A stretch of DNA of 64,000 bases from Minisyncoccia bacterium (lineage in GTDB: Bacteria > Patescibacteriota > Minisyncoccia > Phycocordibacterales > Phycocordibacteraceae), in the NCBI GenBank assembly GCA_038228545.1, contig JBBRPE010000001.1, positions 110,924-174,923 on the forward strand, read 5' to 3'. Within the stretch, counting starts at the first letter, position 1; each line of letters starts with the position of its first letter. Below the pieces are notes generated by a model, which made no database searches, was not told where the DNA came from, and saw nothing but the letters and a program-made list of their open reading frames with translations. A program made the position numbers and the translations under genes. Shown here one piece after another: positions 3,462 to 54,357 of this stretch.

Positions 3462-3509
3462 TCCCACTGCCCTCTCTTTGGCTTGCCAGAGAGAGGGTGG
3501 ACTTTTTTA
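3462..3509. terminator. Bidirectional rho-independent terminator between convergent hypothetical gene and gdh
   Basis: GC-rich hairpin CCCTCTCT..AGAGAGGG(TGGAC) followed by TTTTTT. Confidence 0.5.
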
Positions 3510-4718
3510 GGCCTCGAGTATGCGGGTTACGGCAAGCGCATACGCAGCTTCGCGAAGCGTGATGTTTCGTTCTGCGGCGAAGTCCGCGACGTCGCGATAC
3601 GCATCTTCCATAGTGGTCTTTAGACGCTCTTCCACTTCTGCCCGCGTCCACGTTTCCCCTGACTTGTTTTGAAGCCATTCGAAATACGAAACGGTTACGC
3701 CACCGGCGTTCGCAAGCACATCAGGAATGACGATAATACCGTTCTCTGTGAGCGCCGCATCAGCTATAGGTGTCACCGGACCGTTCGCTATTTCAAGCAC
3801 GACGCCTGCCTGTACGCGCCCAACATTGTCGTCGCGTATCTGTTCCTCGAGTGCTGCAGGGATGATGATATCGGCCGGAATGGTGAAAATGGAATCGGCA
3901 GGAAGCTTCTCGCCTTCTGCTTCGTGTACGGAACCTTTTTCTTCTTTCACAGAAAGCACATGCTCAACATCAAGACCCTTCGGATTTGCGATTGTGCCGT
4001 GCGAATCCGCAATGGCAACAACGCGAGCGCCGCTTTGTGCAAGCAGGCGTGCTGCCTGTGCACCAGCATTCCCTGCTCCCTGAACACTTGCAGTGAGATT
4101 CTCGAGCGAACGATGCTGATCGCGCAGAAGTGCATCAAGTACTATGACTGCGCCGTCTGCTGTCGCTGTGTCGCGGCCTTCGCTTCCACCCTTATCAAGT
4201 GGCTTCCCCGTAATGAATGCGGGCGACGGCTTCCCGGTGATTTTTTCATATTCGTCGAGCATGACCGCCATGATTTCAGGAGTCGTGTACACATCAGGTG
4301 CAGGCACGTCTACGTCTGGTCCGAGGTGGTCGGCAAATGCTCGCACAAAAGCACGTGCCACTTCATGTATTTCATTCTTTGAATGCGTGCGTGGGTCAAA
4401 CGCAACACCGCCCTTCGCGCCACCGAATGGAATGTCTACAACGGCACACTTAATAGCCATCATCGCGGCAAGCGCCGAGACCTCGTCTTCGTCTGCGTCC
4501 GGATGGAAACGAATACCACCCTTGTAGGGTCCACGAGCATTATTAAACTGCACGCGATACGCAGGATACGTAGCGGTGCTTCCGTCGTCGCGCGTAATAG
4601 TCAGGTCTGCCTTGAGCACGCGGTCAGGTGTTTCAAGACGCGCACGGTCTTCTTCTGAAAGCCCGAGGAGCTCTGCTGCTCGGTCCATATTCTGCTTGAA
4701 GTATTCAAATGCGGCCAT
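3507..4718 (-). CDS. gdhA: Glutamate dehydrogenase (Glu/Leu/Phe/Val dehydrogenase family)
   Basis: 403 aa; GGIRFHPDADEDEV...VDIPFGGAKGG motifs and NAD(P) Rossmann GAGNAG. Confidence 0.9.
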   Translation of the reverse strand: MAAFEYFKQNMDRAAELLGLSEEDRARLETPDRVLKADLTITRDDGSTATYPAYRVQFNNARGPYKGGIRFHPDADEDEVSALAAMMAIKCAVVDIPFGGAKGGVAFDPRTHSKNEIHEVARAFVRAFADHLGPDVDVPAPDVYTTPEIMAVMLDEYEKITGKPSPAFITGKPLDKGGSEGRDTATADGAVIVLDALLRDQHRSLENLTASVQGAGNAGAQAARLLAQSGARVVAIADSHGTIANPKGLDVEHVLSVKEEKGSVHEAEGEKLPADSIFTIPADIIIPAALEEQIRDDNVGRVQAGVVLEIANGPVTPIADAALTENGIIVIPDVLANAGGVTVSYFEWLQNKSGETWTRAEVEERLKTTMEDAYRDVADFAAERNITLREAAYALAVTRILEA

Positions 4719-4980
4719 ATTCTTCTCTGGTGACTGCTATCAGAGAATCTTACGCCTCTCCAGGAATCGGTCTATGGGGATAGCTTCGCTCGGGGTAGTA
4801 AGAATCTCCGCAACTTCGACACTCACGTGTCGCACTTCACATAGTCCCCTCGTAGCGAAAACTCCCTAAAGCACTTCGTTAGTCGGGAGTTTTCTCCTCG
4901 GCTCATTGTGAAGTTGCTCTGCGTTCGGAATAGCGGATATTCTTTACTACCCATCGCTACGCGAGAAACGGAAGGAGTTT

Positions 4981-5147
4981 GTGTGGATGAAGGAAATTAA
5001 CTGGAAGCAGCCGAAGCGGAAAGAGTTTTGGAAAGAAATAGCCGACCGAGGTCCTCGAGTGGCGGTATTTCTTGAACGAAAGGACTATCCGCTTCGTGTC
5101 GCCCTGGAACGCCGGAGTTTTCCGTCATCCGCGCACACGAGTGTAGC
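4981..5147. repeat. Copy 1 of a duplicated ~150-170-nt non-coding element with terminal inverted repeats, starting 10 nt after the smc stop codon
   Basis: ~125-nt core (5001-5125, ctggaagcagccgaagc...ccggagttttcc) ~88% identical to 24750-24875; ends GTGTGGATGAAGG / CCGTCATCCGCGCACAC are inverted repeats; no conserved ORF. Confidence 0.7.
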
Positions 5148-7379
5148 CTATTTTGCGACCGCAGCAGCTTCTTCAAATTTAACTGAAAGTAGTTTACTGA
5201 TACCATCCGCGCCCATAGTGACGCCGTAGAGTATTCCGGCGCGCGACATAGTCTCGCGGTTGTGGGTGATGACGATGAGCTGGGATTTCTTGGCAAGCTC
5301 TTCAATCATGTCGCCGTAACGGCGCGAGTTTGCCTCGTCGAGTGCTGCGTCCGTCTCGTCGAGTATGAGGAACGGTGGCGGATTCACCTGACTCATAGCA
5401 AAAATAAGTGCGATAGACGTAAGTGCACGCTCACCGCCAGAAAGTTGCATGAGTGACTGCACGCGCTTCTTCGGCAAATGTACGGAAATTTCAATACCGG
5501 GCTTGCCCTGCTTCTTTGTTTTCTTCCCTGATATTTCTTCGTCTTCGTAGGTTTCGTCTTCATCGTCTTCCTCAATAGCATCCTGTTCCTCAAGGATGAG
5601 CTTTGCGCCACCGCCGCCAAACATAATGCCAAAGTATTCGCCGAAGGAATGATTTACCTGCGCGAGACCTTCAGCGAACGTTTTTGTAAGTTCGTCGTCG
5701 AGGTCAGTAATAAGTCCTGCCAAGCCCTCTGCAGACTTTGCGAGGTCTGCAAGCTCGCGTGCAAGAAATTCTTCGCGTTCGGTTGCTTCCGTGTATTCTC
5801 GCTTTACATCTTCACCAGTGCCGCCCGCTTCTTCCACACGAATCTTGAGACGTTCGAGAGTACGCTTTCGCATCTCCTGCACGGAACGCTCTTCGCTCGA
5901 TATTTCTTCCTGTTCATGATTAAACGCACTCGCTCCTGCAAGCGAGAGTACTTCCGCCCTATCGCGCTCAAGTTCGTCCGCGAGACTCTGGAGCTCGCGC
6001 ACACGGTAGTCTTCGCGAGCAACACTTCCTTCTTCACGGGCTTTCGTTTCTGCAAGTCCGAGGATGCGTCGCTTTTCTTCGCGGCCAGTCTCTTCATAGG
6101 CAAGTGCCGTCTCACGCGCTTTCATAAGCACGCTACGCGCCTTCTCGACAGCACCCTCGAGCTCGGCGTCCTTCTTCATGAGCTCGGTACGCTCGTTCTC
6201 GAGCTGATAGACCGTATTCTCCTCATCCTTGAGATAGTCGTCGTTTGGAGCCGCGTAACGGTCAAAGAAGGCAGCAACAGCAGCACGTAGTCCTTGGAGG
6301 GCTGCACGTATCGCGCCTGGTTCCGCCTGTTCCGTTTCGACAATCTTGGACTGTTTCTCCACTTCTTCGCGAAGCGTAGAGAGATCCTCACGGGTGACTT
6401 TCACGTACGGCTCGCGCGCGATAGCCGCCGTGCGTTTCTTTGCTTCATGGAGCCCGCCTTCGATGCGACCTATCTCGCGGGAAAGCGTGGAGCGTTCGCT
6501 CCCGATACGATCCACCTCACGCTCAGCCATTCGAATAGCTTCACTACGCTTCATACTCTCAGAGTCGCCGGTAACACCCTCGTCAAAGACTGCAAGTTCA
6601 GCGCTTGCGGTCGCGAGCTTCTCTGCTGCCACCATCTTGCGCTTAGCGGCATGCTCACGCTCCGACTCAATGTAGTTTTCCTCGACAGCGAAGTAGGTGC
6701 GAGCGAGCGATGCGAGCTCGTTCATGAGTTCTTCCGCGCGCTCTACCTTCTCTACTTGTTTCTGAAGGAAGCGGATGTGCGGAGCTATCTCTCGCCTAAG
6801 TGCTTCTACCTCACGGACATTATCCTGCGTGCGATCGAGTTTGCGTTCTGCTTCCTGTTTCTTGAATTCAAAAACTTTCAGACCAAGTGCATCTTCGAGC
6901 ATGGCGCGCCGCTCACGCGGATGTGCAAGCAAGATGCGGTCTGCCCCCCCCTGCGAGATGATGTGATGGCCTGTTTCGCCGATATTTGCTGACGCGAGAA
7001 GTTCCTGCACATCGCGCAAACGTACCTTCGAGCCGTTGATGAGGTATTCGGAAGACCCGTCTCGGAAAACAGCACGCTCAATCGTGACTTCCTCAAAGTC
7101 GAGCTTCGGGAATATGCGCTTGCGGTTATCGAATACGATAGCAACGGATGCGCGGTTGGAACGTGGTGTGGAATTAGACCCGCTCCATATAAGGTCTTCA
7201 CTGCGCTTGCCGCGCATGGATTTCATAGACTGTTCGCCAAGAGCAAAGCGGAACGCTTCAGCGACATTTGATTTACCCGAACCATTAGGCCCCACTATCG
7301 AAGTGGTTGCATTAGAAAAATCCAGAATCGTCTTTTTCGCGAACGATTTAAAGCCGACTATCTCGAGCCGTTTCAACAT
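5148..7379 (-). CDS. smc: SMC-family chromosome segregation ATPase (short, ~743 aa)
   Basis: N-terminal Walker A MLKRLEIVGFKSF...GPNGSGKSN, long coiled-coil middle, C-terminal signature LSGGERALTSIALIFA...LDETDAALD; start taken at ATG 7379 (ORF track extends to 7439). Confidence 0.8.
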   Translation of the reverse strand: MLKRLEIVGFKSFAKKTILDFSNATTSIVGPNGSGKSNVAEAFRFALGEQSMKSMRGKRSEDLIWSGSNSTPRSNRASVAIVFDNRKRIFPKLDFEEVTIERAVFRDGSSEYLINGSKVRLRDVQELLASANIGETGHHIISQGGADRILLAHPRERRAMLEDALGLKVFEFKKQEAERKLDRTQDNVREVEALRREIAPHIRFLQKQVEKVERAEELMNELASLARTYFAVEENYIESEREHAAKRKMVAAEKLATASAELAVFDEGVTGDSESMKRSEAIRMAEREVDRIGSERSTLSREIGRIEGGLHEAKKRTAAIAREPYVKVTREDLSTLREEVEKQSKIVETEQAEPGAIRAALQGLRAAVAAFFDRYAAPNDDYLKDEENTVYQLENERTELMKKDAELEGAVEKARSVLMKARETALAYEETGREEKRRILGLAETKAREEGSVAREDYRVRELQSLADELERDRAEVLSLAGASAFNHEQEEISSEERSVQEMRKRTLERLKIRVEEAGGTGEDVKREYTEATEREEFLARELADLAKSAEGLAGLITDLDDELTKTFAEGLAQVNHSFGEYFGIMFGGGGAKLILEEQDAIEEDDEDETYEDEEISGKKTKKQGKPGIEISVHLPKKRVQSLMQLSGGERALTSIALIFAMSQVNPPPFLILDETDAALDEANSRRYGDMIEELAKKSQLIVITHNRETMSRAGILYGVTMGADGISKLLSVKFEEAAAVAK

Positions 7380-7493
7380 TACGAAAAGTATACCGCATCG
7401 AACTCTCTCAGAGATAGCGCTGGAACGAGTATTTCCCAAATAAAAGAATTTCTAGAAATCGGAGGCTCTTGTATGTTGAAGATACAAGCGTAC

Positions 7494-8181
7494 CTACCAG
7501 CCCATCTTGTCGAGTGCAGCTTGTGCAGCATCCTGCTCTGCCTCTTGCTTACTCTTCCCTGCTCCGCGTGCGAATTCTTCTTCACCCAAAAATGCACCTA
7601 CCGTAAAGACTCGGTCATGATCCGGACCTTCTTCAGAAAGTGTCTTGTAGGACGGTGTGATGCTTTTCTTTTCCTGACCTGCTTCCTGGAAGCGGCTCTT
7701 TGCATCCTGGTACCCCTTGTTCTCGATTATGGAATCAATCTTTGGATAAAGCGTGCGTGCAACGAACGCTTCGGCCGCTTCGTAGCCCTGGTCCAAGTAG
7801 ATGCTTCCAAGTACTGCTTCAAAGGCATTCGCAAGGATAATGTCGCGTGCACGACCAGTGTCCTTCGCTTCACCTTTCGAAAGAAGGAGCATGTCGTTAA
7901 GACCAAGGAGCTTTGCACTTTCCGCGAGAGAGACGGTGTTCACAAGTGCGGCACGATACGCCGTGAGATCGCCCTCCGGCTTCATTGGAAATTTATTGAA
8001 AAGGTAGTGCGTGCTTGCGAGCTCGAGCACGGCATCACCGAGAAATTCGAGGCGTTCGTTGTGCGGTCCTGTCGCCTTATGCTCATTTAAATAGGAACGA
8101 TGCGTAAGCGCCTCGACCAGTAAGTCGAGGTTTTTGTAGCTAAGCCCCAGCTGGGCTGCGTATCCGCTGAATTCCGCCATA
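7494..8181 (-). CDS. rnc: Ribonuclease III
   Basis: RNase III signature HRSY...NERLEFLGDAVLEL plus C-terminal dsRBD; start at MAEFSG (ATG 8181; ORF track extends to 8240). Confidence 0.9.
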
Positions 8182-8230
8182 TGCCCGTAGATTATCGCAA
8201 AACGCTGTAAACGCCAGCGGGTCTTTTTTT

Positions 8231-8276
8231 CAACTATCACCTCTTTGTGACGACCGTCACAAAGAGGTGATAGTTG
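8231..8276 (-). promoter_or_regulatory. 21-bp perfect inverted repeat (hairpin) in the rnc 5' leader
   Basis: caactatcacctctttgtgac | gacc | gtcacaaagaggtgatagttg; 50-95 nt upstream of rnc start; T7 on one side only, so not a canonical terminator. Confidence 0.5.
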
Positions 8277-8369
8277 AAGGTTGCGTGAAGGTAGCGTGAG
8301 GGTCGCAGAAGTTGGTTGAAGCTGATTGAAATTGATTGAAATGAGGAGTGGCAGCCGTAAAGAATCCAG

Positions 8370-8405
8370 GCGCGAATACTATTCGCGCCTGGATTCTTTT
8401 AGACC
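8370..8405 (-). terminator. Probable terminator downstream of the NusB-NUDIX gene
   Basis: 16-bp GC-rich stem gaatccaggcgcgaat/attcgcgcctggattc with flanking A/T runs. Confidence 0.45.
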
Positions 8406-8428
8406 AACTCCGAGGTGTTGGTTTTAAA

Positions 8429-9331
8429 TTACGAGGAACGCGGTCGGTCGAGGAGTTTTTGGACGGCCGCAGTGACAATCGGAAGCATGTCGTCATAGAA
8501 GTTCAAATCGAGTATGTCGGGAAGACGGAACCACTTTGCATCATCGAGTCCACCGCTTTTTTTAAGCGTTAGCGTTTCAAACTCCGTCGAGACTAGGAAG
8601 AAATACACGTGCTTGCGTATCTTTCCCTTTTCCGGATGCGAGGCGACATATTCGTTCTCGCCAATCTGGTCTTCTACTTTGACGTTCATAAGCCCAAGCT
8701 CTTCGCCCACAACACGCGCCACGCCCACTTCCGGAGTTGGGTCTCCTTCTATATGACCCTTTGAGAGCGTCCAGCGCCCGAAGATGTCATGCACCAGCGC
8801 GAGGTAGTACTGGCCATCATGGAGTGCGTACACGATTGCGCCACCAAGCTTTTCAAGAGGAAGGTCTTCGCGCTTCACACGATCCTTCTTCCCTATCTCG
8901 TCTTTACCCGGTTCACCGAGCTCTTTGTAGACCGCACCGAGAACGCCGTTTACGAAACGACCCGAAGAGTCACCGCCGAATACCTTTGCAAGTTCAATTG
9001 CTTCGTTTATAGCTACCTTTGCCGGTACCTGCGTACGGTCAGCAAAAAGAAGTTCATAAAGCCCGATACGGAGTATGTTGCGATCAACTGGCGCAATCTT
9101 ATCGAGCGGCCAATCAGGCGCGGCTTTCTCAATGACCATATCAAGGTCGGGCTTTTTGGCGAGTACGCCATCGAGGAGAGTTTTCATAAAAGGCTGGTCG
9201 GTATCATCGCCGCCGAACTCGTCGACGTTGCGTGCGAGCATTTCTGCTGCACCTTTTGCGTCGGCACTAGTTGTGTCCCACTCAAAGAGTGTTTGCAAAA
9301 CTACCGAACGTGCTAGATGCCTGTTGGCCAT
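8429..9331 (-). CDS. nusB: NusB antitermination domain fused to a C-terminal NUDIX-like hydrolase domain
   Basis: N-terminus RHLARSVVLQTLFEWD...NRILRIGLYELLF...AINEAIELAKVFGG...FVNGVLGAVYKEL (NusB); C-terminus GHIEGDPTPEVGVARVVGEELGL (degenerate Nudix box); 300 aa versus ~140 for NusB alone. Confidence 0.75.
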   Translation of the reverse strand: MANRHLARSVVLQTLFEWDTTSADAKGAAEMLARNVDEFGGDDTDQPFMKTLLDGVLAKKPDLDMVIEKAAPDWPLDKIAPVDRNILRIGLYELLFADRTQVPAKVAINEAIELAKVFGGDSSGRFVNGVLGAVYKELGEPGKDEIGKKDRVKREDLPLEKLGGAIVYALHDGQYYLALVHDIFGRWTLSKGHIEGDPTPEVGVARVVGEELGLMNVKVEDQIGENEYVASHPEKGKIRKHVYFFLVSTEFETLTLKKSGGLDDAKWFRLPDILDLNFYDDMLPIVTAAVQKLLDRPRSS

Positions 9332-9554
9332 ATGAAAGAGCTGTATGAGTAGGATACCCTACTTTGGAAAAGTGCATTGCACTCATGCAATGCATCATGT
9401 GTATATCGAAAGGAAACAAAACGGAGAAAATCGAAACGGAACGAGTACTCCGCGAAAGCACGCTGTTCCGAAGACAGAGTAGTTTTGCGCAGAGTCGAGA
9501 AGAACTATCCCGACTACTGAAGCGCTTTAGGGATAGTTCGATATGAGACGACAA

Positions 9555-9582
9555 CGCAAAACCCGACATCTGAGTGTCGGGC
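9555..9582 (-). terminator. Rho-independent terminator after rpmF
   Basis: Minus strand: hairpin CCCGACACUCAGAUGUCGGG followed by UUUUG. Confidence 0.55.
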
Positions 9583-9612
9583 TGTGTGCTTTCTCGGAGT
9601 GCGAGTGGAGCG

Positions 9613-9975
9613 TTATACGCCCCCGCCGAAACCGGAACGTGACTTTGCCTTTCCGAGAGTCATGCGTCCGATAAGTCCCTGCTTCTTTTCACGTTCCTCT
9701 GTTGCCGTGTGCTTCTCGGGAGTCATGTTGGTGTTCGCTGCTTCTACCTTGTCGTGCTCCTTCTTTGCCTTGTCTTTCTTCTTCTGTTCAACTGCTTTCA
9801 CTTCCTTCTTGGAAACGATTTGAACGCCACGGTACATGCCCGTAGTCTCATCGATGCGGTGCGGAAGACGGAGTGCTCCGGACTCTTTGTCGACAACGAC
9901 GTTAGTCCCCGCAAGCGCATGGTGGCTGCGGCGGTTCTTGGTGTGCGAACTGGTGTGGCGCATTCGTACTGACAT
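9613..9975 (-). CDS. rpmF: 50S ribosomal protein L32 with long K/E-rich C-terminal extension
   Basis: From ATG 9975: MSVRMRHTSSHTKNRRSHHALAGTNVVVDKESGALRLPHRIDETTGMYRG matches L32 pattern (RRSHxAL...DK.SG...HR...GxYRG); ORF track N-terminal extension disregarded. Confidence 0.8.
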   Translation of the reverse strand: MSVRMRHTSSHTKNRRSHHALAGTNVVVDKESGALRLPHRIDETTGMYRGVQIVSKKEVKAVEQKKKDKAKKEHDKVEAANTNMTPEKHTATEEREKKQGLIGRMTLGKAKSRSGFGGGV

Positions 9976-9989
9976 AGTGGGAATACCGT

Positions 9990-10335
9990 ACCATATGGCC
10001 TTATATATGGCTAGAGCACCCCTTTTCCTTGTTATACGGCCCAGATAGTGCAAGGATTACTAGGTCGCCTTTGTGTGCTGAGCGGGACCTCAGCCGGGCG
10101 ATAATCCGAACGGTCTCTACGACCTTGTACCAATCCGGAATTTTTGGGAAATACCGGATGCACATCCAACAGAATTCCATGAACGTTTCTGCTGCTCGCC
10201 GCAAGGGGAGCAAACGAAAACGGGCCTGGCCGTACCGTCGAGATGGGTAGCTTAGCTCTATGAGCTGCCTCACAACCCGCGCCACCCAGGCGCACACACA
10301 GTCCTAATCTCGGAACATCTGTTCTTGACCCTGGA
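9990..10335 (+). ncRNA. Candidate non-coding RNA of unidentified family, ending in a strong terminator
   Basis: ~390 nt without convincing ORF between divergent rpmF start and rnhB stop; plus-strand intrinsic terminator at 10336-10370; internal hairpins such as ATCCGG..CCGGAT. Confidence 0.3.
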
Positions 10336-10372: not shown

Positions 10373-10963
10373 TTATTCCTTTTCGTCCAGATGCAGAAAG
10401 GTCATACGATGTAGTTCACACGGGCCATGCTCACGGAGCGCTTCATAGTGCTTCTTGGTTCCGTATCCTTTATGTATATCGAATCCGTACAACGGATAGT
10501 CGAGTGCGAGTTTTTTCATAAGCCGGTCGCGCGTTACCTTGGCCGCGATAGATGCAAGCATAATGGCCGGAACGAGACCGTCGCCACCAATGATTGTTTC
10601 TTGTTCGTATTCCGGTGGAGCCTTGAGGGAACCGTCGAGATACACCTTTCCCTCTTCGGGATTCGGATGGAGTTTGCGTACACCGCGCCAAAGTGCACTT
10701 TTCACGGCAGGCGCAATGCCGCCCGCATCAATATCTTTCGCAGACACCAGTTGCACTACCGCCTGCACGGTTCCCTTTTTTATTTCTTCTTGAAGAAGCG
10801 CGAAGAGTACTTCGCGCTTCTTTTCTGAAAGCTTTTTCGAATCATTAAGGCCCGGAAACGCAGACTCAAAATCAAACTCTTTTGTGACGCGAATGACACC
10901 AACGGCAACCGGGCCAGCGAGCGGTCCACGACCAGCCTCATCAATTCCAATCAGGTACGACAT
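10373..10963 (-). CDS. rnhB: Ribonuclease HII
   Basis: MSYLIGIDEAGRGPLAGPVAVG...; start at ATG 10963 (ORF track extension to 11119 would overlap dnaE start region). Confidence 0.9.
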   Translation of the reverse strand: MSYLIGIDEAGRGPLAGPVAVGVIRVTKEFDFESAFPGLNDSKKLSEKKREVLFALLQEEIKKGTVQAVVQLVSAKDIDAGGIAPAVKSALWRGVRKLHPNPEEGKVYLDGSLKAPPEYEQETIIGGDGLVPAIMLASIAAKVTRDRLMKKLALDYPLYGFDIHKGYGTKKHYEALREHGPCELHRMTFLHLDEKE

Positions 10964-16721: not shown

Positions 16722-16769
16722 GGGTTGTGCTCCTATTGCTGCCCCGCGAGAGTATGCGCCTCATGGAGG

Positions 16770-16812
16770 TAAATGCAAAAGCCGCAGACCAGAGGTCTGC
16801 GGCTTTTGCATT
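16770..16812 (-). terminator. Strong terminator hairpin after the giant surface protein gene
   Basis: 20-bp perfect stem aaatgcaaaagccgcagacc-aga-ggtctgcggcttttgcattt. Confidence 0.6.
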
Positions 16813-16822
16813 TAGTAAGAGA

Positions 16823-19800
16823 TTAACCCTCGACTACCTGGAGTGCACGAGTCACCGCCATCTTCACTCCGGTAACGCCAGCTGAGTAGCTAGAGTCAAC
16901 TGCAGTTGAGAGCGAGGATACGAGGCGCTCAAGGAAGCTTGGTGCGCAGCCGGCAGTTGCCTGTGCAATTTCCGGATGTACAGCCGTTCCGTCAGTGTGT
17001 GCACGGAATGCATCATCGAGTGCAACAACTACATGGGTGAGGAACGCCTGTGCGTCGCCGCCTGTCTTGTTGATATCGCGAATGATTGCAAATACCGTTT
17101 CCTTTTCACCGGCGACAAGCGCCTTAATGAAGGAAGGTACGTCCTGAGAAATTACCTTCGCGACTGGTACTTCTACAGTATGAGCCACCGGAGCGGTCAT
17201 GACGGTTATCTGTTCTACCACATTAGCGATAGGAGTTGCATGTTGCGTCGGTGCGACGTAGCTGTGAGTCTCCGTCTCACGAGAGAGTCCCTTCACGATG
17301 TCGTCTACCGTAAGAGTGCCGTTGTCAGCGAGGGCCTTGAAACCTTCGTACGACGAGTAGGTACGAGATGCTACCGGACGAACTGGAGCAGCTACTGAGT
17401 GCATAGCGGGTACGTATGCGACCTGTGTGTGAGCAACTGGTGCGTGCGCTATAGGCGCATAGACCGGCTCGTTTACCGCGTAGCTCATTTCGCCACCGAA
17501 GATTCCCATGCGACGGAGTGCGAACGGAAGTGCGTTACCAAGAACGAGGTACGCAATCGCAAGGCTCCAGAGCACGAGCATGAGCCAGTAGAGCGCCGTG
17601 CCAACAGGACCCAGGTCGAGACCGGTGTACGGAAGGTCAGCGAGGTACACGTACGAGACTGGGTTTCCTGTTACCGGAAGCGAGTCGAGTACGATGTGCG
17701 GCTGAGTAGTATCGACACGGAGTGTTGCAGAACACGTGATGACGTTACCGTTCGTTCCATAGAACGTACCTACGTAGGTGTAGACTCCCTGGCCGTTTGG
17801 AGAGACAGAGCGAGAGCCGCTCGCGTTCACGTCCCCGATACCCTGGTCAAGATGAACGTTATTCGTGTTCGTACTGTTCCAGTAGATGCGTGCGCTGTCA
17901 CCACTGCTGATGTTCGACGGCGATACGCTGAGGGTACACGACGGTCCTGGATTGTACGTATTCGTCGAGACGGTTGTTGCACACGTTACTGTGCCACCTG
18001 CGCCGGTAGCTGTACCAGTGTAGGTACGAGAACCTCCCGGAGTAACGGTGACTGCACCGCCCGTAACGGGACTCATAGAACCGACACCCTGGTCAATGAC
18101 GAATGACGTTGCGTTTGTGGTATTCCACGTAAGCGTCGTCTGGCCATTGCTGTTGATGCTTCCCGGGTTAGCAGAGAGCGTACAGGTCGGGCTTGGCGTC
18201 ACGACAACAACCGTTGCAGGACACGTAATCGTACCGCCTGCACCGGACGCTGTAAGAGCGTAGTTAGTGGTATGCGTCGGCGTTATGTTGCCACTGCCTG
18301 AGGTTGCTACGTTCGAAGAATTCGTTCCGTCCGCAAGCGTTACAGTCGTAGCGTTCGCAGTCGTCCAAATGAGGGTAGAAGAACCACCATAGTTCACGCT
18401 TGCTGGGCTAGCCGAGAGCGTACAGGTAGGAGCAGGTGGTGGCTGCGTTACCGTAACGGTAATCGGAGCAGGACATACGACCGTTCCACCAGGGCCAGTA
18501 GCCGTGAGTGTATAGGTCGTGGTCTGAGTAGGAGCTACGTTGCGGGAAGCCGCCGTTGCTACCGCTCCGATGCCCTGATTAATCGATACGCTCGTAGCGT
18601 TGTTGGTCGTCCACGAAAGCGTGGATGCACCTCCCTGCTGAATAACCTGTGGCGTTGCCGTAAGAGTACAGGTTGGAGCCTCTGGTGTTACAACGACGAT
18701 AGTCGTTGAACAATTTACCGAGGTGCTATTCGCACCCGTAGCCGTGAGGGTGTACGTCGTGGTTACGCTTGGCGCAACTGCAACTGAACCGTTTACAGAG
18801 ACAGTACCAACGCTTGAGATGCTTACTGCAGATGCGTTGCTCGTCGTCCAGGAAAGCGTTGCCGCTGAGCCCTGGGTGATTGAGGTCGGAACTGCAGAGA
18901 GCGTACAGCTTGGGTTCGATGGTGGAACCACATAGATGATGGTCTGACAGGTAGCAGTGCCGCCTGCACCCGAAACTGTAAGCGTGTAGGTTGAGCTCGC
19001 ACCAGGGGAGACAACTGTTGACCCGCCTGATACTGGTGAGATTGAACCGACACCCGAGAGTGAACCCGAAGTAGCGTTCACGCTCGTCCACGTAATGGTC
19101 GAACTACCTCCCTGCTGGATTGAGTTTGGCGAAGCGGTGAGCGTACAGGAAGGAGTTGGAGGAACGATGGTTACGACTACTGTTGTAGAACAGTGCGCAA
19201 CGCCACCAGGACCAACTGCCGTACCGGTGTAGGTCGTGGTCTGACTTGGCCACACACCGATGGAACCGCCCTGTACTGACTGAACATTTCCGATACCCTG
19301 GTCAACCGAGAAACTCGTTGCGCCAGACGTTGTCCATGAAAGATTCGATGAACCTCCCTGCTGGATGTTGTTTGGAGATGCGTTAAGCGTACAAATCGGA
19401 GGATTTGGCTGAACAACGGTTACCGTTGCCTGACAATTCACCGTACCGTTTGCACCAGTTGCCGTAAGTCCGTAGGTTGTCGTTTGTGATGGAGATACCA
19501 GTACCGAGCCGCCGAGCGATACGCTTCCGAGAGTCGAAATAGTAACGCTGTTTGCGTTCGTGGTTGACCATGAAAGTGTTGCGCTGTTTCCAGCAAGTAC
19601 GGACGTCGGACTAGCCGAGAGCGTACAGGTTGGTGGCTGTGGTGGCTGATTCACCGTAATGGTGGTCTGACAATTAACGCTACCGCCATTACCAGTTGCA
19701 GTAAGGGTGTAGGTTGTCGTGCCCCACGGGGTCACGTTCATTGAGCCGCCTGGAGAAACCGCACCGATGCCCTGATTAATCGATACGCTCGTTGCGTTAG

Positions 19801-21340
19801 AGGTCGTCCAAGAAAGAGTGGACGCACCACCGGTCGTAATCGATGTTGGGTTCGCATTAAGCGTACAGGTTGGTGGCTGTGGTGGCTGATTCACCGTAAC
19901 GCTGGTGTAACAACGGACCGTGCCGCCTGCACCTGTTGCAGTGAGTGTGTAATTCGTCGTCTGTGCAGGTGCCACAGTACGGGAACCGAATGTGCCAACT
20001 GATCCGACACCCTGGTCGATAGTTACTGACGTAGCGTTCGTCGTTCCCCAGTTGAGGGTGGACGCGCCGCCGGTCGTAATAGACGAAGGACTTGCGGAGA
20101 GCGTACAGGTTGGTGGCTGTGGAGCCTGCGTTACGACAACCGTCGTGTTGCAGTTTGCCGTGCCTCCAGGACCCGTAACCGTAAGGGTGTAGGTTGTCGT
20201 TTGTGTTGGGGAAACCTGCACGGAACCGCCAGTCGAGACTGCGCCGAAGCCGGTAAGGCTTGCAGAGGTCGCGTTGTTCGATGTCCAAGAGACTACCGAA
20301 GACTGACCATTCTGAATCGAGGTTGGATTTGCAGAGATGGTACAGCTTGGAGCCTGTGGTGGCTGATTCACGGTAACGGTCGTGTAACAGTGGACAGTTC
20401 CACCATTGCCGCTAGCAGTAAGGTCGTACGTCGTCGTCTGTGTCGGGCTAACGTTGCGTGAGCCGTTCGAAGCAACTGCGCCTACTGTTGGTGAAATCGA
20501 AATGCTTGCTGCATTTGTCGTTCCCCAGTTGAGGGTAGATGCACCACCCGTCGTTATGGAAGCAGGGCTCGCCGTAAGCGTACATGTTGGGGAAGGAATC
20601 TGAGTCACCGTTACGGTTGCGTAACAATGGATAGTACCGCCGTTACCGATAGCCGTAAGGTCGTAAGACGTCGTCTGGGACGGCGACACGTTGCGTGAGC
20701 CGGACGTATTTACCGAACCAATGCTCTGATTAATAGAAACGCTGTTTGCGTTCGTGGTATTCCACGAAAGCGTCGAGCTTCCGCCATTCTGTATGGACGT
20801 CGGGTTTGCTGAGAGCGTACAGGTCGGAGCTGGCGTCGGAATGGTTACCGTAACGGTGGTCGTACAATGTACGGTTGTGCCGTTACTAGTAGCCGTAAGG
20901 TCATAGGTCGTCGTCTGTGACGGATTTACCGTACGTGAACCTGAGGTTCCAACTCCACCGATGCCCTGATCGATACTAACGGTATCAGCATTCTGCGTGG
21001 ACCATGAAAGATTTGAAGAATAGCCCTGAGTTATCGTCGACGGATTTGCGTCGAAGTTACAGGTAGGAGGAGGCAGGGGAGCCGGTGCTGGAGTCACGGG
21101 TGCCGGAGCTGGCGCCGGTGCTGGAGCAGGAGGTGGTGGTGGGGGTGGTGGGGGTGGTGGGGCCGGAGCAGGGGGCGGAGTACAGCACGGTGGAAGAACC
21201 TGCGCCATAACCTGCGTAGGTGTTACGAGTCCGGTTGCAAAAGCAATACCGACGCCTGCTGAGAAAACGGTAAGTACGGTAACGACACCGATAAGAATCG
21301 GGCGCTGCTTTGCGTAGGACATTGAAGTTTCGATGCTCAT
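16823..21340 (-). CDS. Giant cell-surface protein (1505 aa): N-terminal TM/signal anchor, Pro-rich linker, ~17 tandem ~80-aa Cys-bounded Ig-like repeats, LPVTG/LPYTG sorting-signal-like segment with TM helix and RR, then ~255-aa C-terminal domain
   Basis: Repeats of form CTLSASPxSIxxGGSSTLxWxTTNATSVxIDQGIGxVxxSGSRxVSPxQTTTYTLTAxGxGGTVxC; 240-nt periodicity at DNA level; LPVTGNPVSYVYLADLPYTGLDLGPVGTALYWLMLVLWSLAIAYLVLGNALPFALRR. Confidence 0.8.
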   Translation of the reverse strand: MSIETSMSYAKQRPILIGVVTVLTVFSAGVGIAFATGLVTPTQVMAQVLPPCCTPPPAPAPPPPPPPPPPPAPAPAPAPAPVTPAPAPLPPPTCNFDANPSTITQGYSSNLSWSTQNADTVSIDQGIGGVGTSGSRTVNPSQTTTYDLTATSNGTTVHCTTTVTVTIPTPAPTCTLSANPTSIQNGGSSTLSWNTTNANSVSINQSIGSVNTSGSRNVSPSQTTSYDLTAIGNGGTIHCYATVTVTQIPSPTCTLTASPASITTGGASTLNWGTTNAASISISPTVGAVASNGSRNVSPTQTTTYDLTASGNGGTVHCYTTVTVNQPPQAPSCTISANPTSIQNGQSSVVSWTSNNATSASLTGFGAVSTGGSVQVSPTQTTTYTLTVTGPGGTANCNTTVVVTQAPQPPTCTLSASPSSITTGGASTLNWGTTNATSVTIDQGVGSVGTFGSRTVAPAQTTNYTLTATGAGGTVRCYTSVTVNQPPQPPTCTLNANPTSITTGGASTLSWTTSNATSVSINQGIGAVSPGGSMNVTPWGTTTYTLTATGNGGSVNCQTTITVNQPPQPPTCTLSASPTSVLAGNSATLSWSTTNANSVTISTLGSVSLGGSVLVSPSQTTTYGLTATGANGTVNCQATVTVVQPNPPICTLNASPNNIQQGGSSNLSWTTSGATSFSVDQGIGNVQSVQGGSIGVWPSQTTTYTGTAVGPGGVAHCSTTVVVTIVPPTPSCTLTASPNSIQQGGSSTITWTSVNATSGSLSGVGSISPVSGGSTVVSPGASSTYTLTVSGAGGTATCQTIIYVVPPSNPSCTLSAVPTSITQGSAATLSWTTSNASAVSISSVGTVSVNGSVAVAPSVTTTYTLTATGANSTSVNCSTTIVVVTPEAPTCTLTATPQVIQQGGASTLSWTTNNATSVSINQGIGAVATAASRNVAPTQTTTYTLTATGPGGTVVCPAPITVTVTQPPPAPTCTLSASPASVNYGGSSTLIWTTANATTVTLADGTNSSNVATSGSGNITPTHTTNYALTASGAGGTITCPATVVVVTPSPTCTLSANPGSINSNGQTTLTWNTTNATSFVIDQGVGSMSPVTGGAVTVTPGGSRTYTGTATGAGGTVTCATTVSTNTYNPGPSCTLSVSPSNISSGDSARIYWNSTNTNNVHLDQGIGDVNASGSRSVSPNGQGVYTYVGTFYGTNGNVITCSATLRVDTTQPHIVLDSLPVTGNPVSYVYLADLPYTGLDLGPVGTALYWLMLVLWSLAIAYLVLGNALPFALRRMGIFGGEMSYAVNEPVYAPIAHAPVAHTQVAYVPAMHSVAAPVRPVASRTYSSYEGFKALADNGTLTVDDIVKGLSRETETHSYVAPTQHATPIANVVEQITVMTAPVAHTVEVPVAKVISQDVPSFIKALVAGEKETVFAIIRDINKTGGDAQAFLTHVVVALDDAFRAHTDGTAVHPEIAQATAGCAPSFLERLVSSLSTAVDSSYSAGVTGVKMAVTRALQVVEG

Positions 21341-23359: not shown

Positions 23360-24613
23360 GTGGTAATAAGTACGCATATGGAAACGACCCAGAATCACCC
23401 CCAGGTACAGACGACTAAGCGCGCTGCCGTAGGCGGCCTCGCAGTCGTCGGCTTTGTAGCGCTTATTCTTATTGGCATTGCAACTGCAATTTACGCAGCA
23501 TCCTTCCTTCCGAAGGCGTTCTCGAAGCTCTCTTCGGCAAACGTGTTCCTTTCGGGAATTGCCCAGCCAAACGACAACAATCAGCTCCAGGTGGTACAGC
23601 CAACAAACACCACGCCGGCTCCGACCTCTATTGTGCTTTCACCAGCAACCACGACCAACACTGTTATCACTCCTATCTATACACCTCCAGCACCGACCCC
23701 GACGTACACTGCTCCAGCGCCAAAGCCGACCTATACCGCTCCAGCAACACCGACGTACCATGTTGTCGCAGTTCCTGCTTCAACCAACTACACCGGACTT
23801 CCTGATCTTACGACGTCCATCATGTCGGTTGGGTACCTCCGCAACAACGGAGACACCAATTCCTTCGTCGCGGCTAATACCGTGCCAACGGGGCTTCAGG
23901 GTGCTGTTCGCTTCTCTATAGCTAACCGCGGAACAAACGTCTCTGCTCCATTTATCTTTGAGGCAAACATTCCAAGCGGCAACAGCTCAACGGTCTATCG
24001 TTCCCCATCTGAGCGTGCGCTCAATCCAGGCGATAGCGTTATCTTTACGCTCGGCTTCGACTCTACTCAGAGCGGAAGTCAGAACCTTCGTGTGACTGTT
24101 GATCCAAGCAACTACATTGCTGAATCAAACGAAAGCAACAACACTGGTACCGCTACTATTTACCTCAGTGGCAACTACAACAACTCGAATAACAATTCGA
24201 ACAACAACTCAAGTCAGTACGACAGCAACGGTACCTACTGTACGTACGGAACGTACTACTCAAATAGTCGTTACTACTGCAACTCAAGCTACAACGGTAA
24301 CAACAATTCGAATTCGAACACCAGCTCGTACGACAGCAATGGTCAGTATTGTACCTACGGGACGTACTCCTCAAGCGGTCGTTACTACTGCAACTCAAGC
24401 TACAACAGTAACGGTAACAACAATTCGAATCAGAACGATATCAACGGTCGCAATTGCCTCTACGGTACTTCCTACAGCAACGGTCAGTACTACTGCAACG
24501 CAAATACATACACTAATACTAATACCAACACCGGCAACAGTCAGTACGACAGCAACGGTCAGTATTGTGCCTACGGGACGTACTACTCGAACAATCGCTA
24601 TTACTGCTCCTAA
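23360..24613 (+). CDS. Membrane-anchored surface protein: N-terminal TM, Pro/Thr-rich linker, CARDB-like domain, C-terminal N/S/Y-rich tandem repeats
   Basis: CARDB-like ending ...NLRVTVDPSNYIAESNESNN; 4x repeat YDSNGxYCxYGTYYSNxRYYCNSSYN. Confidence 0.75.
   Translation: MVISTHMETTQNHPQVQTTKRAAVGGLAVVGFVALILIGIATAIYAASFLPKAFSKLSSANVFLSGIAQPNDNNQLQVVQPTNTTPAPTSIVLSPATTTNTVITPIYTPPAPTPTYTAPAPKPTYTAPATPTYHVVAVPASTNYTGLPDLTTSIMSVGYLRNNGDTNSFVAANTVPTGLQGAVRFSIANRGTNVSAPFIFEANIPSGNSSTVYRSPSERALNPGDSVIFTLGFDSTQSGSQNLRVTVDPSNYIAESNESNNTGTATIYLSGNYNNSNNNSNNNSSQYDSNGTYCTYGTYYSNSRYYCNSSYNGNNNSNSNTSSYDSNGQYCTYGTYSSSGRYYCNSSYNSNGNNNSNQNDINGRNCLYGTSYSNGQYYCNANTYTNTNTNTGNSQYDSNGQYCAYGTYYSNNRYYCS
24212..24610 (+). 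repeat. Tandem direct repeats (~108-111 nt, 4 copies) encoding the N/S/Y/C-rich C-terminal repeats
   Basis: agtcagtacgacagcaacggt...cgttactactgcaactcaagctacaac recurring at 24212, 24323, ~24430, 24539. Confidence 0.7.
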
Positions 24614-24667
24614 TTGGCAACGAGCTCCGCTCTTATAAAGTGATAGCCTTATTGACCTAAACTATTC

Positions 24668-24702
24668 ATGAAGAAGCCCCGCATACCGCAGGGCTTCTTC
24701 AT
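24668..24702. terminator. Terminator hairpin after the CARDB/NSY-repeat gene
   Basis: atgaagaagccc-cgcataccgcag-ggcttcttcat (11-bp stem) followed by TTT. Confidence 0.5.
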
Positions 24703-24726
24703 TTCACCCCCCTATCATGGAGTGAG

Positions 24727-24897
24727 TGTGTGTGAATACCAGGAATAAGCTGAAAGCAGCCGAAGCATAACGAGTTGAGGAAAGAAATATCCGACCGAGG
24801 TCCTCGAGTGGCGGTATTTCTTGAACGAAACGACTATATGCTTCGTGCGCCCTGGAACGCCGGAGTCTTCCTGGCATTCACACACACGAACGAAACC
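24727..24897. repeat. Copy 2 of the duplicated non-coding element with terminal inverted repeats, starting 10 nt after the gyrB stop codon
   Basis: Core 24750-24875 ~88% identical to 5001-5125; flanking inverted repeats GTGTGTGTGAATACC / GGCATTCACACACAC. Confidence 0.7.
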
Positions 24898-26994
24898 TTA
24901 AATATCCAGATTCGCCATCCGCGCGTTCGATTGAATGAACGACTTACGACTAGCAACGTCCGTACCCATGAGTACATCGAAGATGCGGTCCGCCTCCGCG
25001 GCATCATCCACCGTAACGCGCTTCAGTATGCGCTTACTCGGGTCCATGGTGGTCTCCCAGAGCTCGGACGGATTCATCTCTCCAAGACCTTTGTAACGCT
25101 GAATGGTTATCTTTTGCGACTTTGCAGGCTTCCCTTTTGTGTTTGTTTCCGCTTCAGCCGCCGCTTCTTCGGCTTCTACTTCTTCATCGGTCGCATCCGC
25201 TTCATTTACCACAAGGTCTGCGTCTTTGCCGAGAATCTGAGCCTTTTCTTCATCCGTATAGGCATACAGGATTTCCTTACCGCGCTTAATCTTGTAGAGC
25301 GGTGGCTGTGCAATATACACAAACCCTCCATCAATAACCTGACGGAAGTGACGGAAGAAGAGTGTGAGCAGGAGCGTGCGAATATGGGCTCCGTCCACGT
25401 CGGCGTCAGTTGCAATAATCACTTTGTGATAGCGAAGCTTCGTAATATCAAAGATGTCCCCGATAGCAGTACCCATGGCAATAACGAGATTCTTAATCTG
25501 TTCAGACGCAAGCATCTTATCAAGGCGAGCGCGTTCAATATTTAAAATCTTGCCGCGAAGCGGAAGAATGGCCTGCGTACGTCGGTCACGTCCCATTTTC
25601 GATGAGCCACCTGCCGAGTCTCCCTCCACAATGAAAAGTTCGCTCTCAGATGCATCCTTGGTCTGACAGTCAGCCAGCTTACCCGGAAGGGTCATGCCCT
25701 CAAGGGCACCCTTACGGAGCACCGAGTCTTTTGCAGCCTTTGCGGCCTTACGAGCCTTAAGGGCGAGCAGGACTTTATTTACAATTGCCTTGGCGTCGTC
25801 CGGATTCTCTTCAAGGAACGAGGAGAATGCGGTGCCGAAGACTGTCGCGGTTGCACCCTGCGCTTCGGTTGAGCCGAGTTTACCCTTGGTCTGACCTTCG
25901 AACTGAATCTCCGGCATCTTTATAGAAATAACTGCTGTGATACCTTCGAGGACATCATCACCCGTGAAGTTCTCCTCGCTTTCTTTGAGGATACCTGCGG
26001 AACGACCGTAGGAATTGAGCGTACGCGTGAGCGCTGTCTTGAAGCCGGTTACGTGCGTACCTTGTTCCGGATTGTAAATATTATTGGCGAATGCGAGCAG
26101 GCGCGGTGACAAATCATCCGTGTATTGAAGTGCGACTTCGACCGCGACATCATTCTCGCTCGAATCAACGTAGAAAATATTCTTGTGGGCGACCGTCTGG
26201 TGCTTGTTGTAAAACCCAATGAGCGAGCGCAGACCACCTTCAAAGAAGAAGGTCATGGACGGCACCTCAAGGCCGAGGTTGCGTGCGTAGAACTCGTTCT
26301 CAGAGTCCACCATGCCCGCTTCGCGTGCATCGATAACGGTAATACGCGTACCCTTCACGAGGTAGGCCTGCTGACGCAGATGCGAGACAATCTTGTCCCA
26401 ATTCCAAGTGATGCCTTCCTTGAAGATAGTGACGTCCGGCTTGAAAAAGACGATGGAGCCCTGGTGCGACGTCTTTCCAATCGGCTTAACCTTCGCAAGC
26501 GCTTTACCTATCTTGTATTCCTGCATGTGCATGACGCCGTCTTTGTGCACAATGACTTTCGTGTGCTCAGAGAGCGCGTTCACCACAGATGCGCCCACAC
26601 CGTGAAGACCACCCGAGACTTTGTACCCGGAATCTTCCCCGCCGAACTTACCGCCGGCATGCAGCGTGGTCATGATGGTCTCGAGTGCTGAGACTTTGGT
26701 CTTTGGGTGGATACCGACCGGAATACCGCGACCGTTATCCGTGACGCGTACGTAGCCGCCCGGAAGCAACACTACTTCGATATCATCCGCGAACCCACCC
26801 ATCGCTTCGTCGCGAGAGTTATCGAAGATTTCCCAGATGAGATGGTGAAGACCATCGGGTCCGGTAGTACCGATGTACATGCCCGGGCGCTTGCGGACCG
26901 GTTCGAGGCCCTCGAGGACGGTGATGCTAGAGGCATCATATTCGCCGCCTTTTGAGGCAGCTTTTTTCGCTATAGGAGCCACTTTCTTAGCCAT
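24898..26994 (-). CDS. gyrB: DNA gyrase subunit B
   Basis: GHKL ATPase motifs (LHHLIWEIFDNSRDEAMGG, DNGRGIP), TOPRIM, C-terminal ...SNARMANLDI; start at MAKKVAP (ATG 26994). Confidence 0.95.
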   Translation of the reverse strand: MAKKVAPIAKKAASKGGEYDASSITVLEGLEPVRKRPGMYIGTTGPDGLHHLIWEIFDNSRDEAMGGFADDIEVVLLPGGYVRVTDNGRGIPVGIHPKTKVSALETIMTTLHAGGKFGGEDSGYKVSGGLHGVGASVVNALSEHTKVIVHKDGVMHMQEYKIGKALAKVKPIGKTSHQGSIVFFKPDVTIFKEGITWNWDKIVSHLRQQAYLVKGTRITVIDAREAGMVDSENEFYARNLGLEVPSMTFFFEGGLRSLIGFYNKHQTVAHKNIFYVDSSENDVAVEVALQYTDDLSPRLLAFANNIYNPEQGTHVTGFKTALTRTLNSYGRSAGILKESEENFTGDDVLEGITAVISIKMPEIQFEGQTKGKLGSTEAQGATATVFGTAFSSFLEENPDDAKAIVNKVLLALKARKAAKAAKDSVLRKGALEGMTLPGKLADCQTKDASESELFIVEGDSAGGSSKMGRDRRTQAILPLRGKILNIERARLDKMLASEQIKNLVIAMGTAIGDIFDITKLRYHKVIIATDADVDGAHIRTLLLTLFFRHFRQVIDGGFVYIAQPPLYKIKRGKEILYAYTDEEKAQILGKDADLVVNEADATDEEVEAEEAAAEAETNTKGKPAKSQKITIQRYKGLGEMNPSELWETTMDPSKRILKRVTVDDAAEADRIFDVLMGTDVASRKSFIQSNARMANLDI

Positions 26995-33515: not shown

Positions 33516-33591
33516 GCCGCCTTAGCTCAGTTGGTAGAGCAACACTTTTGTAAAGTGAAGGTCCCCAGTTCGAGCCTGGGAGGCGGCTCCA
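33516..33591 (+). tRNA. tRNA-Thr (anticodon UGU), CCA encoded
   Basis: Cloverleaf by hand: acceptor GCCGCCT/AGGCGGC, D-arm GCTCAGTTGGTAGAGC, anticodon loop TTTGTAA, T-arm CCCAGTTCGAGCCTGGG, discriminator T, CCA. Confidence 0.85.
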
Positions 33592-33593
33592 AT

Positions 33594-33632
33594 AAACGTA
33601 CAAGCGCTCCTCACGGAGCGCTTGTACGTTTA
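33594..33632. terminator. Bidirectional terminator shared by tRNA-Thr and the convergent rpsB-tsf operon
   Basis: 17-bp stem aaacgtacaagcgctcc-tcac-ggagcgcttgtacgttt. Confidence 0.6.
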
Positions 33633-34040
33633 TGTGGCATCGGGACCCGGTGTGCCCTTCCGAAGGGTTTTACGGAAACGAACGATGGTCGCTATAAGGG
33701 GAGAGCCTTCGGGCTCAGGGGCCGTGTCTCCACGCTCGGCAACTCGTTCACGAAGCGTACGGATAATACGCGTGAGAGCGCGTTCTGAGGCACGCACAGC
33801 GAGTAGAGTGGTATGTACAGCGTCATGAGCAACACGCTCACTAGTCGTTTTAACCATATGAGCAAAAAAAGCCGTCCAGTCTATGTGGCGAGCCACATAG
33901 ACTGCCCGAGCAACCTGTTTATCGAGGCGAGCGCGTGTACCGGAGAACAACCGTACTCCTTGCTTTGTCTCGAACCAGGAAAGGAATACGAAAGCCACCA
34001 GCAGAAAAAAAGTAATACAGATGGCAATAAGGTAGCTCAT
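33630..34040 (-). CDS. Hypothetical membrane protein (136 aa) downstream of tsf
   Basis: TM MSYLIAICITFFLLVAFVFLSWF then charged tail; no SD; start chosen internally (ORF track 33630..34154). Confidence 0.35.
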   Translation of the reverse strand: MSYLIAICITFFLLVAFVFLSWFETKQGVRLFSGTRARLDKQVARAVYVARHIDWTAFFAHMVKTTSERVAHDAVHTTLLAVRASERALTRIIRTLRERVAERGDTAPEPEGSPLIATIVRFRKTLRKGTPGPDAT

Positions 34041-48117: not shown

Positions 48118-48145
48118 ATCGTGATGTAGTATAGCAGACGCAAGA

Positions 48146-48182: not shown

Positions 48183-48191
48183 TAAAACTAG

Positions 48192-54329: not shown

Positions 54330-54357
54330 ATTTTTAGGGCTGTAGAGGGGTTTTAAA

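Follow-up and report, generated by a model that had tools for sequence, protein, structure and literature searches.

A previously undescribed family of CGAG-bounded hairpin elements in one Parcubacteria subclade behaves more like a mobile REP/MITE-type repeat than a fixed regulatory tail of smc and gyrB

The sequences that follow smc and gyrB in the DNA studied here are members of a previously undescribed family of non-coding elements of ~170–190 bp, which belongs to one Parcubacteria (Paceibacteria-like Patescibacteria) subclade and which we name CGAG-bounded hairpin elements. In its behaviour the family is closer to mobile repeats of the REP/MITE type than to a fixed regulatory tail of smc and gyrB. 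We see about an even chance that it is a lineage-restricted, REP/BIME/MITE-like structured intergenic repeat, which is copied or exchanged within the genome and lies flush with stop codons. The first-pass annotation had offered a structured 3′-UTR RNA or a MITE-like element, and the latter fits best, with several copies per genome, empty sites in distant relatives and turnover of type and orientation at the gyrB site. A 3′-UTR RNA in the sense of smc and gyrB is disfavoured, because the element at the gyrB site of a related contig (L045) has the opposite orientation and strand indicators favour antisense. Likewise, the suggested tie to chromosome-maintenance genes is incidental, since other copies follow rpmF (L32) or precede gdh. 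Below, the window means the whole 64-kb stretch of DNA that was analysed.

The next relatives of the window GyrB (698 aa) and SMC (an SMC_N protein of 743 aa), at 84–87% identity, are by annotation Patescibacteria, Parcubacteria or Paceibacterota MAGs. The minus strand of the window carries rpmF, nusB-NUDIX, rnc (RNase III), smc and gdh in this order and with conserved synteny, and RNase R, dnaE, proS, gyrB and pheST, housekeeping genes which were identified from Pfam and are also in conserved synteny, lie nearby. The NusB-NUDIX fusion has 300 aa, as it does in L040, L041 and L042. A motif (A/G)TCCCCATAGAC upstream of gdh is conserved in the window (4719-4783), L041 and L042, and L040 has the diverged form GTCCACATGGAC; the motif could be a promoter or leader element of gdh. 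The C-terminus of the CARDB-domain protein consists of repeats rich in Asn, Ser, Tyr and Cys (SNGQYC.YGTYYSN.RYYC; direct repeat D12, 24200-24607), and a hairpin at 24670-24705 comes after the end of this gene and adjoins the element after gyrB. Three very large ORFs of 1452–1654 aa, all on the minus strand (16823-21340, 37039-42003 and 59555-63913), likely encode surface or adhesin proteins. The ORF at 16823-21340 contains ~12 tandem repeats of 237–246 nt (~80 aa), and two type IV pilin-like genes (53811-54692 and 54884-55393; N_methyl motif) are located near the very large ORFs. Perfect hairpins of 16–24 bp stand at several gene ends (8227-8280, 8359-8399, 10784-10829, 16768-16816, 33592-33633 and 48140-48185), often flanked by an A-tract and a T-tract, and the one at 33592-33633 directly follows the tRNA; the genome appears to use unusually long perfect hairpins as bidirectional terminators. 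The GC skew of the window mainly reflects gene composition and does not reveal the replication direction.

Table 1. Positions of the elements, their parts and neighbouring features (window coordinates unless a related contig is named; R1 and R2 are the covariance models described in the text)
Feature	Type	Position	Strand	Score or remark
smc stop codon		5148-5150	-	
gyrB stop codon		24898-24900	-	
gdh		3507-4718	-	
rpmF (L32)		9613-10053	-	Pfam
nusB-NUDIX		8429-9331	-	Pfam
CARDB-like gene		23360-24613	+	
tRNA		33516-33588		reaches Rfam gathering score
Copy A	type 1	4974-5146	+	R1 186 bits, E 2e-39; R2 163.6 bits
Copy A, P1		~4977-4995 paired with 5118-5138		
Copy A, 5′ loop motif CUGGAAGCAGCC		5001-5012		
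Copy A, P2		5010-5019 with 5089-5100		
Copy A, apical stem P3		5033-5073		
Copy A, GACUAU		5083-5088		
Copy A, CCUGGAA		5103-5109		
Copy A, 3′ tail GAGUGUAGC		5139-5147		
Copy B	type 1	24723-24895	+	R1 186.5 bits, E 1.6e-39
Copy B, 3′ tail GAACGAAACC		24888-24897		
Copy C	type 2	9442-9610	+	R1 36.7 bits, E 3e-6; R2 128 bits (training member)
Copy C, 3′ tail GAGUGGAGCG		9603-9612		touches rpmF stop codon
Copy X_A	type 2	4784-4956	-	R1 38.1 bits, E 1.7e-6; R2 120 bits (training member)
X_A/A spacer		4957-4973	no strand	between the two 5′ tails
Copy L027-X	type 2	L027:12097-12265	-	R1
Tail-bounded hairpins, 69-146 nt		L041:2876-3021; L040:12240-12308; L041:8710-8879; L042:12229-12319		

Two copies in the same orientation had been described, and both lie where the first-pass annotation placed them (copies A and B in Table 1; repeat family D15), A between copy X_A and the smc stop codon and B between the hairpin at 24670-24705 and the gyrB stop codon. 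Its figure of ~88% identity over a core of ~125 nt was fair, because 110/122 positions (90%) are identical between 5001-5122 and 24750-24870; over the full spans then claimed, identity is 82%. The closing stem ends 9 nt from the stop codon of smc and 10 nt from that of gyrB, and the hairpin GAAAUACCGCC...GGCUAUUUC with its U-rich tract was recovered in the folds. The likeness of the two copies is far above chance, with a covariance-model E of ~1e-39 for each copy, and a three-motif pattern matched the window twice (A and B) vs 0 times in 100 shuffles. The absence of a conserved peptide was also borne out, and we reject a coding sequence, since an indel between A and B shifts the reading frame. 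Parts of the earlier description had to be changed: there are four family members in the window rather than two, the extra ones being C and X_A, and the hairpin is not a small structure within a larger element, as the entire 170 nt forms one long hairpin with a side stem. Mechanically called ORFs of 82–256 aa cross the elements at 4981-5229 (+), 4997-5305 (-) and 24775-25545 (+) and are not conserved between copies; as gene calls they would be spurious, and the same may hold for a 174-aa ORF that directly follows gyrB in L028 and has no Pfam match.

The search for further copies in related loci, which had been proposed as a check, yielded three. A third, diverged copy, L027-E, is located downstream of gyrB in L027, a related metagenome contig whose GyrB is 85% identical to that of the window; the sequence of its closing stem is wholly different yet pairs, and RNAalifold on A, B and L027-E gave 59 pairs, 19 of them with compensatory changes. 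The covariance model built from these three copies (R1) matched X_A, C and L027-X, none of which was in its training set, at E values of 1e-6 to 1e-13. A second model from six copies (R2) then matched an untrained seventh copy, L045:12087-12255, with 107 bits and E 1e-21, and with filters off it found exactly four full copies in the 64-kb window. Thus seven long copies from three genomes are in hand, and the copy number is four per 64 kb. Other scans gave nothing more: R2 found no copy in ~90 kb from five loci of more distant relatives; the three-motif type-1 pattern matched only unrelated sequences unlike the element, by inspection, in metagenome and viral contig collections, and R1 found none on the metagenome loci so matched; the type-2 pattern had no match in the viral contig collection; and an exact 20-mer scan of a genome-contig collection returned 25 matches, mostly in high-GC Actinobacteria, which we read, without aligning them, as chance.

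The seven copies fall into two subtypes. Type 1 (A, B and L027-E) has the loop motifs CUGGAAGCAGCC and CCUGGAA, and type 2 (X_A, C, L027-X and the L045 copy) has CCGAACGCAGAG, an apical stem like AAAACUCCC...GGGAGUUUU and a short P4 hairpin. Identity is ~40–50% between subtypes and 58–80% within type 2, and at least two subtypes are carried by one genome, that of the window. Copy C, with an apical hairpin of A-tract, stem and U-tract, fills the spacer between rpmF and nusB-NUDIX. Copy X_A, for which the forward sense is the minus strand, lies 66 nt upstream of gdh and shares ~70% identity with the type-2 copies that follow gyrB in L027 and L045. X_A and A stand head-to-head with a spacer of 17 nt and thus form a doublet. 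In folds of the relatives L041 and L042, the matching tails (UCGCUCC ... GGAGCGA) can pair into a small hairpin; in L041 these are the adjoining tails of a head-to-head doublet (#1/#2).

All seven copies adopt one long hairpin with a side stem, in which the closing stem P1 (~18 pairs) leads through a purine-rich junction to the long arm P2–P3 and the short side hairpin P4. This fold has been kept by compensatory substitutions. In the seven-copy alignment, 46/58 pairs are changed on both sides and 90.2% of cells are in standard pairs; when the 3′ partners are slid by 1–3 columns as a control, pairing falls to 35–48%, and none of 500 shuffles reaches any of the five pairing measures. P1 is the fastest-evolving part, with 67–75% identity between A and B vs 90% in the core, and in 17/18 of its pairs both sides have been altered with compensation. 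The loop motifs, which are CUGGAAGCAGCC or CCGAACGCAGAG together with GACUAU, are better conserved than the stems, and the A-rich loops are on one strand. Such conserved loop motifs and A-rich loops would be more usual in a functional RNA than in a selfish repeat.

Outside P1, every copy has similar, non-pairing, purine-rich tails on the forward strand, approximately AACGGAGCGA 5′ of the stem and GAGCGGAAGC 3′ of it; the hairpin is therefore bounded by direct CGA/G ... C/GAG. A tail of 9–10 nt abuts the stop codon in 7/8 gene-following cases, whichever end of the element faces the gene. The same boundaries, CGCTCG / CTCGCTCC, flank hairpins of 69–91 nt directly after smc in L040, L041 and L042, as well as a hairpin of 146 nt, representing a third type, which L041 has between rpmF and nusB. 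R2 matches one of these regions (L040:12232-12311) at 31.8 bits, and the family as defined by its tails is broader than what R2 detects. For the hairpin census the strict version was used, as the permissive one was too noisy. A 109-nt long hairpin at 34712-34820 fills the spacer between rpsB (34821-35531, -) and tsf (34081-34719, -), a spacer of only 53–57 nt in L027 and L045; it may be a different insertion, since it has no CGAG tails and reaches only 12 bits with R2.

Comparison of related genomes gave contrasting pictures for the sites after smc and after gyrB. We took the subclade as genomes with SMC at least 82% identical; the more distant set comprised relatives with 71–75% SMC identity and other gyrB loci (L028 and L035–L039). 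At the post-smc site, all four subclade genomes carry an element whose position and orientation are the same, although the content of the hairpin differs (69–91 nt in the relatives, ~160 nt in the window); this constancy looks vertical rather than mobile. Between gyrB and the CARDB gene, each of three genomes has its own arrangement: the window carries a reversed type-1 element, L027 a reversed type-2 element together with a forward type-1 element, and L045 a forward type-2 element. Elements at this site can therefore face either way with respect to the gene, and the three occupied genomes share the downstream flank CTTCATGAATGC...TATCACT. L027-X has 80% identity and a similar P1 to the L045 copy, yet faces the other way. 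R2 found no element after gyrB in L028 and L035–L039; L037, L038 and L039 have a gyrB/CARDB spacer of only 53–62 nt with a simple hairpin of 41–52 nt. Hence, neither presence nor orientation nor, given the other subtype in the window, the kind of element after gyrB is fixed.

Exchange between loci is also indicated by the copies themselves. The doublet X_A/A of the window, between smc and gdh, corresponds to the doublet X/E of L027, which lies at a different locus, between gyrB and the CARDB gene. Moreover, the cores of A and B are 90% identical, vs ~61% for either copy against L027-E, which implies that sequence was copied or gene-converted inside this genome once the lineages had separated; A and B are far more alike than is expected of old intergenic DNA. 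No transposase, integrase or reverse transcriptase domain was found by Pfam in ~40 ORFs of the window, nor do these occur in the Pfam lists of the related loci L027, L028 and L037–L045. A Logan contig of 2075 nt (L001, SRR19962015), whose Gdh is identical to that of the window, ends 35 nt upstream of gdh, beside X_A, and this end is probably an assembly break caused by the repeat.

The constraint on the loops can be read in another way, as a multi-copy structured non-coding RNA made from the forward strand, with a three-way junction and A-rich loops, which would have a protein partner or act as a cis-antisense RNA over gene 3′-ends. The turnover of copies would then reflect gene duplication and loss rather than selfish mobility. 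We find this doubtful, although covariation is strong in every helix and the loop motifs are conserved across subtypes and genomes. The forward strand of the model is the plus strand of the window for A, B and C and is thus antisense to smc, gyrB and rpmF, and a set of soft indicators weakly favours it as the folding strand. It has the lower folding energy in 6/6 copies, with a large gap only for A (15 kcal/mol) and C (7 kcal/mol); for A, the plus strand gives -68.9 kcal/mol (z -3.8) and the minus strand -53.3 (z -1.9), and for B both strands give ~-72 to -75 kcal/mol (z ~-6.7). G-U exceeds A-C in the stems by 25:6 on model pairs and by 25:10 (p = 0.017) on the union of pairs predicted from either strand, but the excess is not significant (7:3) on the intersection of the pairs predicted from both strands. 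Unpaired positions of the forward strand are 36–47% A and 57–68% purine, and in 3/4 type-2 copies (X_A, L027-X and L045) the P4 hairpin is closed by a GNRA loop, either GUGA or GAGA. However, strand asymmetry would equally arise with one DNA strand as the folded species. Upstream of A, B and C, a scan for promoter-like sites found none, and the 5′ ends of X_A and A, only 17 nt apart, leave no room for promoters. Since A and C run opposite to the minus-strand operon around them, transcripts from these places most likely represent the reverse strand, and the forward strand has no obvious source of transcription. The syntenic sites of distant relatives are empty, and the post-smc hairpins of close relatives are much shorter with the same tails. 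Nor did an Rfam check, proposed earlier, give a match: no family reaches its gathering score at the elements, the window containing only the tRNA, and around all four copies Rfam 15, including 6S, SRP and Weinberg-type orphan motifs, returned only chance-level matches at E up to 10 (COG2908, 18.9 vs 58.7 bits; mir-278, snoZ43, Ref68 and speF). A diverged form of a known housekeeping RNA (6S, SRP) or of another described RNA family is accordingly very improbable. The overall shape of closing stem, internal loops and terminal stem in ~170 nt is reminiscent of 6S RNA, and GGAAGCAGCC of the helix 8 motif of SRP; but no 6S or SRP model scored on any copy at E up to 10, GGAAGCAGCC lies near the base of the hairpin and not beside an apical tetraloop, four copies of two subtypes occur within 20 kb, and the syntenic regions of relatives are without the element, with hairpins of 69–91 nt in its place in close relatives. 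Identity with 6S or SRP RNA is effectively refuted.

Alternatively, the elements could be hairpins in the sense of the genes, in 3′-UTRs or between cistrons, which are co-transcribed with smc, gyrB and rpmF as bidirectional terminators, 3′-end stabilisers or RNase III sites, and which evolve in place, homogenised by gene conversion, without mobility of their own. Such an explanation, which we hold to be rather unlikely, would account well for the start 9–10 nt past the stop codon in 7/8 cases and for the constancy of the post-smc element; long perfect hairpins of 20–24 bp at many other gene ends of the genome and the genes for RNase III and RNase R nearby agree with it. An embedded terminator had been suggested by the first-pass annotation, and its layout stands, for the apical A-tract, GC stem and U-tract are those of a bidirectional terminator. 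A consensus terminator scan (4500-10300 and 24300-25200) nevertheless called none of the apical hairpins in the four window copies; the totals matched those expected from shuffles, and only one called site, a minus-strand stem (9436-9453) that overlaps the edge of C, touches an element. A relaxed definition of terminators might still fit, because the U-rich tracts are paired with A-tracts. A role as terminator or in 3′-end protection is plausible but would leave the conserved loops and the non-pairing tails, needless for a terminator, unexplained. The strand indicators lean antisense, and the doublet of L027 (type 2 plus type 1) matches that of the window at another locus. The type-2 element after gyrB is inverted between L027 and L045 despite 80% identity and a similar P1, and hence a cis function of the sense strand would not be preserved. 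It is unlikely, too, that the family is a new class of multi-copy structured RNA or folded single-stranded DNA, distinct from REP/RAYT, MITEs and attC, of which a Parcubacteria protein would recognise the three-way junction and the A-rich loops strand-specifically; such a class could amount to hairpin-directed mobilisation that targets the position after stop codons, or to an RNA–protein system at transcript 3′-ends.

Among known repeats, the REP/BIME/REPIN sequences of Proteobacteria, which are mobilised by RAYT (Y1 HUH) transposases, are the nearest analogues, and hairpin-forming MITEs are close as well. They are interspersed extragenic hairpins after stop codons or within operons, two hairpin types in inverted orientation form mosaics (here X_A/A and L027-X/E), and they persist within one lineage. 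REPINs also have a short conserved motif beside the hairpin foot and a variable, compensating stem (PMC3116915), and compensatory changes have been documented in these mobile hairpins (PMC3116915). Our family has a conserved CGAG at both feet and head-to-head doublets (X_A/A, L027-X/E and L041 #1/#2), which may or may not correspond to these REPIN features, since the doublet members are of different subtypes and the motifs are direct rather than inverted. Unlike REPs of ~35 nt, the element has 170 nt and is four to five times longer, contains a three-way junction with conserved A-rich loops, and is bounded by direct purine-rich repeats (CGAG ... CGAG) rather than inverted REP units. No RAYT gene was seen in the 64-kb window, and the host is a reduced-genome member of the Parcubacteria.

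Hairpin-forming MITEs of 100–170 bp include Correia/NEMIS in Neisseria, ERIC/IRU in enterobacteria and RUP/BOX in pneumococci. They are imperfect palindromes found in either orientation and co-transcribed with their neighbours, their presence varies at orthologous sites, and they can supply terminators or RNase III sites. The elements described here resemble them in size, imperfect palindromy, occurrence in either orientation and variable presence at orthologous sites. However, terminal inverted repeats of MITEs are conserved between copies, whereas the closing stem is the least conserved part of our element: each copy has a closing stem of 16–20 bp, and its sequence varies (67–75% identity between A and B, unrelated in L027-E). 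We know of no insertion sequence that matches the element. No target-site duplication that varies between sites was seen; every site has the same CGA/G ... C/GAG flanks (AACGGAGCGA / GAGCGGAAGC), which points to a part of the element or a fixed target rather than a duplication. Intrinsic terminators share the location right after stop codons and the apical A-tract, GC-rich stem and U-tract, but they need only ~30–40 nt, without conserved loops or tails. Integron attC sites, like the element, keep their structure while the sequence varies, fold as a single strand downstream of ORFs and do so strand-specifically. We rejected attC because the element has no R″/R′ core sites (RYYYAAC / GTTRRRY), variable hairpin feet, CGAG tails, housekeeping neighbours, no integrase and no fixed orientation to the gene. 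TIGR-Tas arrays, which are tandem, are unrelated. Repeats of diversity-generating retroelements were rejected, as the differences between A and B are not adenine-specific, the elements lie outside ORFs and the window ORFs include no reverse transcriptase; so was parS, which has only CACGTGA in common with the P4 hairpin. In the literature on Patescibacteria and Parcubacteria we found no report of such repeats or RNA motifs.

For the repeat of REP/BIME/MITE type that we prefer, four copies in the window and variable occupancy of the gyrB site agree with mobile repeats in general. The direct tails, the conserved loops, the lack of a transposase in the searches above, the constancy of the post-smc site, the small number of copies and the chance-level outcome of the collection scans count against it. 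According to this model, the elements would move through the genome, or be swapped between its loci, as a folded single strand, whether by transposition or by gene conversion, and a trans-acting protein may recognise the conserved tails and the hairpin foot, as in REP/REPIN–RAYT systems or MITEs. Once inserted, they may be tolerated or used as large hairpins at transcript 3′-ends, where they could block 3′-to-5′ exonucleases, be substrates of RNase III or aid termination in both directions. REP-bearing mRNAs are substrates of RNase R and PNPase (PMC12320835).

On the practical side, the family explains assembly breaks and spurious ORF calls in these MAGs (e.g. 4981-5229), and it gives an alignment with strong covariation for experimental use. 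It does not indicate that chromosome-maintenance genes are specifically regulated. The genomes of Parcubacteria and other candidate-phyla-radiation bacteria are very small and tightly packed, and we found almost nothing reported on their non-coding DNA. A tightly packed genome nonetheless keeps 170-nt elements with a strongly constrained fold at the stop codons of smc, gyrB and rpmF. This implies that either a mobilisation or recombination system which has so far escaped notice operates in these genomes, or structured RNAs of large size play a part at the ends of their transcripts.
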